From the sequence record KM606994: a stretch of 64,000 nt of DNA; one strand, 5' to 3'. The notes under the pieces were generated by a model. That model ran no database searches. It had not been told where the DNA came from and saw only the letters and a program-made list of their open reading frames with translations. This stretch comes from Escherichia phage RB3. This document shows positions 3,424 through 64,000 of this stretch, one piece after another; position 1 is the stretch's first letter, and the number at the start of each line of letters is the position of its first letter. The position numbers and the translations under genes are program-made.

Positions 3424-3499
3424 TGGTCGAGGCAGTAGGGATCGAACCTACGACCCAGGACTTAGAAGGTCCTTGCTCTTCCTTCTGAGCTATGCCTCG
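3424..3499 (-). tRNA. tRNA-Arg (anticodon UCU)
   Basis: Manual fold: acceptor CGAGGCA/TGCCTCG, anticodon loop CTTCTAA, T-loop GGTTCGATCC, encoded CCA. Confidence 0.85.
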
Positions 3500-3503
3500 T
3501 ATT

Positions 3504-3578
3504 TGGCGGACGTGATAGGATTCGAACCTATAACCAATCGCTTAACAGGCGATCGCTCTGCCATTGAGCTACACATCC
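3504..3578 (-). tRNA. tRNA-Asn (anticodon GUU)
   Basis: Manual fold: acceptor GGATGTG/CACGTCC, D-arm GCTC-AATGGCA-GAGC, anticodon loop CTGTTAA, T-arm ATAGG-TTCGAAT-CCTAT, CCA. Confidence 0.85.
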
Positions 3579-3582
3579 AAAT

Positions 3583-3669
3583 TGGTGGGGAGTGATGGAG
3601 TCGAACCACCCGAGTCGCAATGACAATGGATTTACAGTCCACACCGCTACCTCTACGGGATAACTCCCC
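3583..3669 (-). tRNA. tRNA-Tyr (anticodon GUA), class II with long variable arm
   Basis: Manual fold: acceptor GGGGAGT/ACTCCCC, anticodon loop CTGTAAA, long variable arm, T-loop TTCGACT, CCA; 87 nt. Confidence 0.8.
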
Positions 3670-3678
3670 TAATTAATT

Positions 3679-3753
3679 TGGTGGCCCTGGGTGGAATTGA
3701 ACCACCATCTGGCGATTATGAGTCGCTTGCTTGAACCTTCCAGCTACAGGGCC
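3679..3753 (-). tRNA. tRNA with CAU anticodon (Ile if lysidine-modified, otherwise Met)
   Basis: Manual fold: acceptor GGCCCTG/CAGGGCC, anticodon loop CTCATAA, T-loop GGTTCAATTCC, CCA; sits where T4 has tRNA-Ile. Confidence 0.85.
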
Positions 3754-3754
3754 T

Positions 3755-3830
3755 TGGCGCTGATTGACGGAATCGAACCGCCGACATCCTCATTACAAGT
3801 GAGGTGCTCTACCTACTGAGCTAAATCAGC
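3755..3830 (-). tRNA. tRNA-Thr (anticodon UGU)
   Basis: Acceptor GCTGATT/AATCAGC, D-loop TAGCTCAGTAGGTAGAGC, anticodon loop CTTGTAA, T-loop GGTTCGATTCC, CCA. Confidence 0.9.
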
Positions 3831-3835
3831 AAAAC

Positions 3836-3925
3836 TGGCGGAGGCGATAGGATTTGAACCTATGAGTCGCCGGAGCGACTGCCGGTTTTCAAGACCGGTG
3901 CATTAAACCACTCTGCCACGCCTCC
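3836..3925 (-). tRNA. tRNA-Ser (anticodon UGA), class II
   Basis: Acceptor GGAGGCG/CGCCTCC, anticodon loop CTTGAAA, long variable arm, T-loop GGTTCAAATCC, CCA; 90 nt. Confidence 0.9.
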
Positions 3926-3927
3926 AG

Positions 3928-4001
3928 TCTCCATACAAGGATTTGAACCTTGGACCTCCTGATCCCAAATCAGGCGCTCTACCAAACTGAGCTACACGGA
4001 G
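3928..4001 (-). tRNA. tRNA-Pro (anticodon UGG)
   Basis: Acceptor CTCCGTG/TATGGAG with G-U pairs, D-loop TAGCTCAGTTTGGTAGAGC, anticodon loop TTTGGGA, T-loop GGTTCAAATCC; CCA not encoded. Confidence 0.9.
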
Positions 4002-4011
4002 TAAATTAAAT

Positions 4012-4085
<74 letters not shown>

Positions 4086-4090
4086 AAATT

Positions 4091-4177
4091 TGGTGCGAGA
4101 AGTGGGACTCGAACCCACAAGGAAATCATTCCGCAGCATTTTAAGTGCTGTGCCTTTACCAATTTGACCATTCTCGC
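4091..4177 (-). tRNA. tRNA-Leu (anticodon UAA), class II
   Basis: Acceptor GCGAGAA/TTCTCGC, anticodon loop CTTAAAA, long variable arm, T-loop GGTTCGAGTCC, CCA; 87 nt. Confidence 0.9.
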
Positions 4178-4178
4178 G

Positions 4179-4251
4179 CTGGGAATAAAGGACTCGAACC
4201 TTTGCATCCTGGAATCAAAATCCAGTGCCTTACCAACTTGGCTAATTCCCA
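4179..4251 (-). tRNA. tRNA-Gln (anticodon UUG)
   Basis: Acceptor TGGGAAT/ATTCCCA, anticodon loop TTTTGAT, T-loop GGTTCGAGTCC; CCA not encoded; 1 nt from tRNA-Leu. Confidence 0.9.
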
Positions 4252-5049: not shown

Positions 5050-5235
5050 TTATTCACCTTTAGAAATTTTATCCATAACAATAGCGATTAAACCAATTAA
5101 AAATGCTACTACAAGTGAAAACACATTTTCTGCTGTAGTCAATAATCCGCATATAAATCCAACAAACATTGAAAAACTAAAAGCAGAAGCAGAAATTGCA
5201 ATAGCAACATTTCGAATTAATTCACAGCGTTTCAT
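5050..5235 (-). CDS. small membrane protein (61 aa)
   Basis: ORF track 5050-5295 trimmed to ATG at 5235 with GAGGAG Shine-Dalgarno; two hydrophobic helices (VAIAISASAFSFSMFVGFICGLL, VVAFLIGLIAIV). Confidence 0.45.
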   Translation of the reverse strand: MKRCELIRNVAIAISASAFSFSMFVGFICGLLTTAENVFSLVVAFLIGLIAIVMDKISKGE

Positions 5236-5263
5236 TTTATTCTCCTCGGTAGTTGATAGGGTA

Positions 5264-63428: not shown

Positions 63429-63458
63429 ATACTATCACAAAGGAGCTATACTGTAAAC
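63429..63458 (-). promoter_or_regulatory. T4-type early promoter (GTTTAC -18 nt- TAGTAT)
   Basis: Minus-strand GTTTAC 63458-63453 and TAGTAT 63434-63429. Confidence 0.45.
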
Positions 63459-63477
63459 AACTTTATGCAATCTTTGG

Positions 63478-63507
63478 AAAATAAAAAAGGACTCCCGAAG
63501 GAGTCCT
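63478..63507 (-). terminator. rho-independent terminator
   Basis: Minus-strand hairpin GGACTCC-TTCG-GGAGTCC followed by TTTTTTATTTT, directly after stop of ORF 63512-63688. Confidence 0.65.
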
Positions 63508-63511
63508 CAAC

Positions 63512-63688
63512 TTATGCTTTCTGCTTACCAAAACGAGAAGCATCATCTCGAAGAACCGCACGCGCTCGGCGCATGATCTTCTCAACAGTTTGATTGATAC
63601 GAGAGTTCGACCCACGCTTGTAGCCAGCGCGTTTAGAATCACCAACTTTCTTTTCAACTGCTTTCTTTGCTTTAACTTGTTTTGCCAT
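63512..63688 (-). CDS. small highly basic protein (58 aa)
   Basis: ORF track 72 aa trimmed to ATG 63688 (MAKQVKAKK...); Lys/Arg-rich. Confidence 0.45.
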   Translation of the reverse strand: MAKQVKAKKAVEKKVGDSKRAGYKRGSNSRINQTVEKIMRRARAVLRDDASRFGKQKA

Positions 63689-64000
63689 TATAAATTCTCT
63701 TTTAAATGAAAATGCAGGACTTATTGGCATTGCCTGCGCAAGCCCTCAAGGGGAACATAGGTTTTTGGATATTTAACGACCAGGATAACCATAAACCCGT
63801 CATCATTCACATTCAAGAGGTACACCGTAAAACTGCCGAGGTCTTAAAACTATAATGATTCGCAAATCATTAATCAGACAGTTCGACGGCTCCTCGATTT
63901 TAGCTCACACTAAGGTAGTGAATCTCCAATAAATTACTTCAATGTTACCACAAAGTGACGAACTGCTTTTCGTGCAGCAGAAGCCAGAGGCTTAGCATAT

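Follow-up and report, generated by a model that had tools for sequence, protein, structure and literature searches.

Conserved RNA modules, among them a probable ToxI-family unit, in the rIII-30.9 spacer of T4-type coliphages

Near one end of a 64,000-nucleotide (nt) stretch of DNA from Escherichia phage RB3 (sequence record KM606994; hereafter the window) lies the gap between rIII and gene 30.9, and this gap contains a sequence that is very probably related to the ToxI antitoxin RNAs of bacterial type III toxin-antitoxin systems. The last 600 bases of the window match coliphages RB5, RB6, RB7, RB9 and RB10 at 100% identity and many T4-type phages at 98-99%, and by this identity the window is T4-type coliphage DNA. 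In the records of RB5, Kha5h and T4 all genes of the region are on the minus strand, in the order cd, 31.2, 31.1, 31, rIII, an unannotated gap, 30.9, a terminator and 30.8. A preliminary description, made from the letters of the window alone, had placed a non-coding stretch between the stop of a minus-strand reading frame near position 63934, belonging to a gene still to be identified, and an ATG at 63688. Both boundaries hold: the upstream gene is rIII, and the ATG opens the MAKQ start of 30.9, leaving a gap of 245 nt (63689-63933). The features of the locus are listed in Table 1.

Table 1. Features of the rIII-30.9 locus, in window coordinates
Feature	Positions	Strand	Basis
3' end of rIII (lysis-inhibition accessory protein), a gene that continues outside the window	63934..64000	-	stop codon TAA at 63936-63934; RB5 annotation at 100% identity; tblastn of RIII on relatives
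Module T, probable single ToxI-family (type III antitoxin-like) unit UGGAGAUUCACUACCUUAGUGUGAGCUAAAAUCG, 34 nt	63895..63928	-	top match of covariance model R1; position directly after the rIII stop
Module H, stem-loop of 79 nt, 25 bp in four stacked helices	63817..63895	-	covariation; folding z -2.93
Apex of module H, the perfect 8-bp AT hairpin of the preliminary description	63853..63872	-	sequence; covariation
Promoter-like remnant and cassette junction	63803..63831	-	alignments of relatives
Module A: AUGAUG, 6-bp bulged hairpin, conserved 11-nt loop UUnnUnGnUAU, tail GUUAAAUAUCCAAAAAC	63761..63806	-	covariation
Module C: hairpin CCC-CUUGA-GGG (63743-63753) and hairpin GCAGG-14 nt-CCUGC (63714-63737)	63714..63753	-	sequence
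Gene 30.9, basic protein of 58 amino acids (aa), with weak ribosome-binding region AAGAG	63512..63705	-	conserved MAKQ start; PHROG 1427
First intrinsic terminator downstream, C(UUCG)G hairpin and U run	63487..63508	-	terminator scan; annotated as terminator in phage Kha5h

A terminator scan found no terminator-like site in 63689-63933, and the GC-rich stem followed by a U run that marks an intrinsic terminator occurs nowhere in this interval. The first such site lies past 30.9 (63508-63487), thus rIII, the spacer and 30.9 form one terminator-free unit. A generic sigma-70 promoter scan flagged nothing inside the gap, and ARAGORN found no tRNA there. The GC content of the gap (0.392) exceeds that of the window (0.359) and of the neighbouring 30.8-30.9 spacer (0.336), so that the difference in base composition from AT-rich intergenic DNA claimed earlier is real but modest, and the gap stays below the flanking coding DNA (0.43-0.45). 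Folding of the gap as a whole was unremarkable (z -0.83 for the minus strand, -1.55 for the plus strand). A scan against Rfam 15 at gathering thresholds, one of the checks proposed in the preliminary description, matched no family in the gap or in its relatives, and permissive scans of the gap gave sub-threshold matches only (ToxI at 16.6 bits, DUF2815 at 14.5, and others).

The most informative feature of the gap, which had been passed over in the preliminary description, follows directly on the rIII stop. To search for ToxI-like sequences we used a covariance model, R1, built from 10 repeats of five bacterial arrays and no phage sequences. Four sources were toxI arrays fetched from upstream of annotated ToxN/AbiQ genes (E. 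coli pU90-1, Lelliottia, Enterobacter, and P. putida pGRT1), and the fifth was the P. atrosepticum repeat (PMC4010927). When R1 was run without filters over both strands of the whole 64 kb, its best match was 63928-63895, here called module T (20.5 bits, a rough E of 0.029, covering model positions 1-36 of 36), with the runner-up at 13.4 bits. The sole Rfam match inside the module is the 16.6-bit ToxI match (RF02519; E 1.6 in a 321-nt search). Aligned with four bacterial ToxI variants, module T shows 26-28 matches in 36-38 columns. The central stem of ToxI (U9-A25, G10-C24, C11-G23) is preserved as C-G, A-U and C-G, the change G10A being offset by C24U, so that the stem reads CAC/GUG instead of the UGC/GCA or CGC/GCG of bacterial ToxI. 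This stem, together with GGAG in place of GGUG, defines a subtype; GCUA and the AAAAU 3' motif are retained, and the 3' side, CUAAAAUCG, carries the ToxN-type AAAU motif.

Module T shares its length and order of elements with the ToxI of type III toxIN systems (RF02519; 36-nt repeats on Pectobacterium, E. coli, Salmonella and Klebsiella plasmids): a GGNGA 5' part, a stem of 3-4 bp, a UACCUUAGU loop, GCUA, and an A-rich 3' tail, at 70-78% identity to natural variants. We consider very probable both the anatomy set out in Table 1 and the homology of module T, as a diverged member, to the ToxI antitoxin-RNA family. As a ToxI-homologous non-coding sequence in a phage intergenic region, it would also qualify, on its sequence, as a pseudo-ToxI.

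ToxI-like units recur at the same site in other phages; a single unit of the more diverged subtype is fixed at the rIII-30.9 locus in about 500 phage records. After rIII, R1 gave 52 bits for Yersinia phage fHe-Yen9-01, 45 for JK45, 34.5 for a20, RZ and UPEC01, 25-30 for L016-L018, L022 and L027 (L numbers are our handles for the sequences compared), and 13.9 for T2, Pinarejo and other ACTGCC forms. JK45 and a20 carry a near-canonical ToxI, AGGTGATTCGCTACCTTAAGTGCGGCTAGAAAATC, which in JK45 departs from the published 36-nt repeat AGGTGATTTGCTACCTTTAAGTGCAGCTAGAAATTC (PMC4010927, PMC8610362) by U9C/A25G, UUU to UU, and one extra 3' A. Near-canonical units are found in coliphages such as JK45, a20 and RZ, in Yersinia phages, and in >160 Klebsiella phage records. 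When the window is compared with Salmonella phage S16, 35 of 37 positions of the unit and 45 of 48 of module A are identical, as against 72.3% for rIII and 74.5% for 30.9. Because the unit is far better conserved than the flanking genes, the copy in the window does not appear to be simply decaying. The derived subtype, UGGAGA-UCAC...GUGUGA, also has a single occurrence in Vibrio phage 1.170.O, an unrelated phage (R1 19.7 bits), and the same CAC/GUG subtype is present as solitary units in metagenome contigs, some of them beside tRNA genes.

A likewise phage-encoded, intergenic and non-coding homologue of ToxI repeats is known from Pectobacterium phage phiTE, the pseudo-ToxI described by Blower et al. 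in 2012 (PMC3475682). The changes seen in JK45 and a20 (U9C/A25G, UUU to UU, and the extra 3' A) match three change groups reported for this pseudo-ToxI, which has further ones (PMC3475682). The two situations differ in that phiTE has 1.5 repeats, which become active only after expansion to 4.5-5.5, whereas the T4-type locus has one, more diverged unit, fixed at one locus with a conserved stem-loop next to it, for which no escape phenotype is known and with T4 itself restricted by plasmid-borne toxIN. No repeat expansion of the unit was seen among the relatives fetched. The literature that we found covers the phiTE pseudo-ToxI and the T4 TifA work; we found no paper on a ToxI-like unit in T4-like phages, and a T4 omics paper makes no mention of the rIII-30.9 locus.

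Of note, single ToxI-like units with 90-99% identity to the Pectobacterium repeat are present in 215 phage records from several unrelated groups, including 164 Klebsiella phages. Examples are Erwinia phage IT22 (H87), Salmonella phage Kenya-K36 (H88), Escherichia phage XT18 (H89), and Klebsiella phage JD18 (H120). In IT22 a tRNA-Ser is annotated over the unit, and among all 215 records only the phiTE unit, recovered by the same BLAST query, is annotated as pseudo-ToxI. One metagenome contig (L199:3851-3930, plus strand) carries a tandem pair of different units, whose stems are CAC/GUG and CGC/GCG.

Repeats that are 100% identical to P. atrosepticum ToxI are located on small plasmids of E. coli, Salmonella and Klebsiella, and by this identity the hosts of these phages appear to carry the target toxIN system. 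Among the plasmids covered (L042, L043, L044 and L190 included), toxI arrays of such identical repeats were found on small mobilizable plasmids of ~4-14 kb from E. coli, Salmonella, Klebsiella and Serratia, and other variants of the repeat on plasmids of Enterobacter, Lelliottia and P. putida as well as on an IncX4 plasmid of E. coli. The idea that the unit of each phage tracks the ToxI variant of its own host was not upheld: the unit most similar to the Enterobacter/Pseudomonas plasmid variant sits in a Yersinia phage.

Module T is directly followed by a stem-loop, module H, which starts with the last base of the unit (63895). Its helices are GAGG/CCUC, GCCGU/ACGGU, GAACUGUC/GGCAGUUU, and the apex UAAUGAUU-UGCG-AAUCAUUA. 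The apex is the perfect 8-bp AT hairpin, TAATGATT-TGCG-AATCATTA on the minus strand, to which the preliminary description had drawn attention. Perfection as such is not rare, since the window contains 29 such hairpins compared to 12 +/- 4.4 in shuffles, and what makes this one significant is its covariation among relatives. In the module H alignment of 11 distinct sequences 99.3% of the cells are paired, and both partners have changed in six of the pairs; one of these occurs as G-C, G.U and A-U, a second has gone from C-G to U-A, and one in the apex from U-A to C-G. The observed covariation was reached by none of 500 shuffles, and slid registers gave 0-1. In phage PNJ-6 two apex pairs are altered (A-U to U.G and U-A to C-G) with pairing intact. 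Three invariant G.U pairs would read C.A on the opposite strand, therefore the structure belongs to the sense, minus-strand RNA. Unlike the gap as a whole, the 88-nt sub-region with module H alone folds markedly, at -26.1 kcal/mol (z -2.93). Phages ime09, VIPECOOM03, S16 and L030 have lost the apex by deletion and retain only the base of the stem. With compensatory changes in two hairpin modules, H and module A described below, the structured RNA suspected earlier is supported, and the spacer is neither an unconserved 3' untranslated region nor a frameshifted reading frame, which the preliminary description had named as the outcomes that would speak against it: it is conserved above its flanking genes and no such frame emerges.

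When relatives are aligned, the gap resolves into modules, each of which is acquired, lost or moved as a whole. The spacer between the same two genes measures 123 nt in RB18, 194 in ime09, 244 in T4, 288 in T2 and LZ, 294 in a20, and 398 in Pinarejo, and ranges from 120 to 416 nt in IMG/VR relatives. The order of modules is A-T-B-C in the L016-L018/L027 group and T-H-B-A-C in RZ. The additional cassettes of relatives are inserted between 63809 and 63808, a site that is empty in RB5 and T4. It is part of a promoter-like sequence: TTTACG (63831-63826) lies within the 3' arm of H and is followed 17 nt on by GAATGA (63808-63803). At this -10 position the sequence is TACTAT in T2, JK45 and PNJ-6 and TATTCT in RZ and Pinarejo, and module D or B comes directly after it; by this comparison RB5 and T4 have lost the -10. 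The arrangement resembles the PeSL (promoter-early plus stem-loop) cassettes of T4-type phages (PMC2839356, PMC4122927) in that a TTTACW-type -35 comes after a stem-loop, at precisely the point where cassettes have been inserted or deleted between related genomes. Compared by eye with the PeSL promoter consensus of T4/PST, TTTACW-N17-TAYWAT (PMC4122927), the TTTACG-N17-TACTAT of T2 and JK45 fits 11 of the 12 specified positions, although a generic sigma-70 scan flags nothing. The window, with TTTACG-N17-GAATGA and no promoter flagged, lacks the stem-loop-plus-promoter combination of a PeSL. Other differences are that the stem-loop is 79 nt long with an AT-rich tip and no U run, and that the cassettes exchanged here are non-coding RNAs and not open reading frames (ORFs).

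One of these cassettes, module B, is a structured RNA of ~145 nt that is absent from the whole window. It is carried by L017 (947-1090, plus strand), L004, L036, L037, L016, L018, L020-L025, L027, L029, L032 and L035. RNAalifold predicted 43 pairs, 20 of them with compensatory changes, in a structure that includes a closing stem and a hairpin with a GAAA tetraloop. No Rfam 15 family matched it, and module B may be an undescribed family of phage non-coding RNA. An alternative cassette of 44-50 nt between H and A, module D, is found in T2 (L005), JK45 (L039), PNJ-6 (L040), L028 and L033, and contains a covarying hairpin, CAGA-AAAGUGUUA-UCUG in one form and CAGC-AAAAGGUUA-GCUG in the other.

Module A, a single-copy element in the window, is the second hairpin with covariation: over 20 distinct sequences 91.5% of the cells are paired, five of the six pairs have changed on both sides, and none of 500 shuffles reached its covariation score; slid controls were clean as well. 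In T4 types it follows the ToxI-like unit, which it precedes in TG1-like phages and the L016-L018 group. It also lies within two tRNA clusters, one in vibriophage KVP40 and one in an environmental phage contig, and this position among same-strand tRNA genes in two distant phages suggests that its role is tied to clusters of processed non-coding RNAs rather than to rIII or 30.9. The copies between tRNA genes are at L068:8107-8133 (minus strand; a KVP40-sized contig) and L049:6804-6830 (minus strand). The latter, environmental contig has in addition a near-threshold match to the defence-associated abiF RNA motif (5198-5257, minus strand; 30.5 bits versus a gathering score of 37) and a group I intron (3462-3704, minus strand; 59 bits, above the gathering score of 50). 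Several other identities were considered for module A. As a sigma-70, MotA-box middle or TATAAATA late promoter its spacing and pattern did not fit by eye, and the promoter idea was dropped. It was also rejected as the repeat of another bacterial type III antitoxin: when 185,579 species genomes were scanned for its pattern, the 112 matches were single ones scattered over unrelated taxa, about the chance number estimated by hand, and none of them formed an array or lay in Enterobacterales. A composite of all spacer modules compared by BLAST with plasmids matched solely through the ToxI-like units, leaving module A with no bacterial counterpart there.

Module C, directly before 30.9, contains the GC palindrome of the preliminary description, which exists as CCCTCAAGGGG at 63743-63753, slightly off the interval given there (63750-63775). 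Relatives keep the hairpins of module C with other stem sequences (CCUC/GAGG, GGGAGC...GCUCCC; seen by eye, with no formal count), and the module is not thermodynamically unusual.

We propose that the gap is a transcribed non-coding spacer of conserved sense-strand RNA modules, and not filler, in which the first module is a solitary antitoxin mimic; we consider the chances of this proposal about even. The spacer would be co-transcribed with rIII from the rIII promoters, since no terminator is met until 30.9 has ended; for rIII, promoters of the early, middle and late classes have been reported (PMC9409239). The ToxI-like unit would then fold as an antitoxin monomer and either occupy a ToxN-family endoribonuclease or be processed by it, and this engagement could blunt abortive infection by type III toxin-antitoxin systems, as the expanded pseudo-ToxI of phiTE does. 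Stem-loop H and module A would be stable elements with a structural or processing role, and would insulate both the unit and the message of 30.9. That module T is at present working as an antitoxin mimic is possible, and we put it forward tentatively. A broader version, which we think unlikely, is that the spacer is an island of counter-defence RNAs, with solitary ToxI units matched to ToxN subtypes beside modules A, B and D and swapped as cassettes. If so, the CAC/GUG unit of T4 and RB5 would neutralise a so far unnamed ToxN-type toxin.

Several observations weigh against a mimic in module T. T4, T2 and T6 are all strongly restricted by toxIN on a plasmid, which speaks indirectly against inhibition of the common E. 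coli toxIN, and escape arose through amplification of tifA and not at the rIII-30.9 locus (PMC9391042). T4 and T2 carry the same module T subtype. Native tifA suffices against chromosomal toxIN (PMC9391042). The 1.5 repeats of phiTE are inactive until expanded (PMC3475682). Unlike bacterial ToxI, module T has no tandem array and no adjacent toxN or abiQ toxin gene, its neighbours being rIII and 30.9; it is single, with no second ToxI-like unit above 13.4 bits by R1 in the 64-kb window. It remains far below the curated gathering score of RF02519 (16.6 versus 50 bits) and departs from the bacterial repeats used at positions where these do not vary (T4 to A, G10 to A, C24 to U, and one loop A lost). 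Its 5' side lacks AAAU, reading UAAUUUAUU / GUAAUUUAUU, whereas the relative fHe-Yen9-01 has AAAU on both sides. No bacterial array of the CAC/GUG subtype was found in plasmids, where the only matches were chance-level ones in Legionella coding sequences (CDSs), or in 5,426 complete E. coli genomes, and an exact-pattern metagenome scan for such an array gave solitary units only. RB18-type phages, with their 123-nt spacer, are without both the unit and the stem-loop, PNJ-6 is without the unit, and ime09-type phages are without the stem-loop apex, thus these modules are dispensable for growth. Finally, the conservation could be due in part to recent recombination.

The modules might instead form a purely cis-acting mRNA element, made up of the rIII 3' untranslated end and the 30.9 leader, in which the resemblance to ToxI reflects ancestry only. 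Such an element would control mRNA stability, translation of 30.9, or processing, either by RegB at two GGAG motifs (63924-63927 and 63889-63892) or, at the long stem, by RNase E or RNase III. The lack of a terminator between rIII and 30.9, the G.U-bearing structure on the sense strand, the hairpins adjoining a weak ribosome-binding site, and the persisting sensitivity of T4 and T2 to plasmid toxIN agree with it, as do the GGAG motifs, given that RIII itself modulates RegB (PMC9409239). We regard a purely cis-acting element as somewhat unlikely, however, since module A and ToxI-like units also occur outside the rIII/30.9 context, in tRNA clusters and unrelated phages, since the variable module order (A-T-B-C versus T-H-B-A-C) speaks against a fixed leader architecture, and since the unit is 95% identical where the genes are ~73% identical. 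It is quite unlikely that the spacer is an evolutionary scar of cassette exchange at a PeSL recombination hot spot, holding a captured ToxI repeat that decays without present function. A scar would not be expected to show compensatory changes in the stem-loop, in module A and in the stem of the unit, to be conserved well above the flanking coding DNA, or to share its diverged subtype with unrelated phages, even though the clean gains and losses of modules over a 120 to 416 nt range, the loss of the -10 in RB5/T4, the position of the T4-type units as the lowest-scoring of the family (13.9-20.5 bits), and the PeSL-mediated shuffling described for T4-type phages (PMC2839356, PMC4122927) all point in that direction.

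A hidden small protein gene or upstream ORF is very improbable. The preliminary description had stated that no frame in the gap is open; taken literally this is incorrect, as mechanical ORFs of 25-49 aa exist (63702-63806 and 63721-63825 on the minus strand, 63706-63855 and 63855-63932 on the plus strand), but its conclusion that the gap is non-coding stands. The candidates would be a 34-aa ORF starting at the AUGAUG of module A (63806-63702), a motif kept in most relatives, or the 49-aa plus-strand ORF (63706-63855), and several database records do annotate short CDSs in the gap. Owing to shifts by 1-nt indels, the length of the AUGAUG frame varies among phages from 3 to 34 codons, the plus-strand ORF is broken by the same indels and by cassette insertions, and conserved positions track base-pairing and not codons; with no reading frame conserved in relatives, the small-ORF explanation was rejected. 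Short CDSs are annotated across covariation-supported RNA modules in L004 (CDS0215/0216), L005 (CDS0232), L007 (a20_46) and L037 (two CDSs), and those over spacer modules are probably over-calls.

The interaction of T4 with toxIN is a current model of phage counter-defence, in which the known answer of T4 is a protein, TifA. If solitary ToxI units do work, RNA mimicry of type III antitoxins would be widespread and not a curiosity of phiTE, and would need no repeat expansion. RNA anti-CRISPRs, built from solitary CRISPR repeat units, follow the same logic: the phage keeps one copy of a host-defence RNA as a decoy. They act on a different defence system, and for module T the function is only proposed. 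On sequence grounds module T is a further candidate for a phage-borne ToxI mimic, accompanied by two companion RNA motifs.

As for the downstream gene, the 30.9 product matches PHROG 1427 (function unassigned; E 3.5e-31), and a Pfam search of the protein matched no domain. Its MAKQ start is kept across 24 IMG/VR relatives and an in-frame upstream extension is not, indicating that the 58-aa form is the real gene; the 72-aa form in some records (Kha5h, RB18, T2 and Pinarejo) is probably a wrong over-call. In several records this longer start and the short CDSs mentioned above overlie covariation-supported RNA structures, and the annotation is corrected here. Elsewhere in the window, a cluster of 10 tRNA genes (3424-4251, minus strand; Arg, Asn, Tyr, Met, Thr, Ser, Pro, Gly, Leu and Gln) contains no ToxI-like unit detectable by R1 and no module A. 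The next spacer, between 30.9 and 30.8 (63429-63508, minus strand), is a textbook terminator-plus-promoter cassette, in which the C(UUCG)G hairpin with its U run is followed by TTTACA-17-TAGTAT with a TG upstream.

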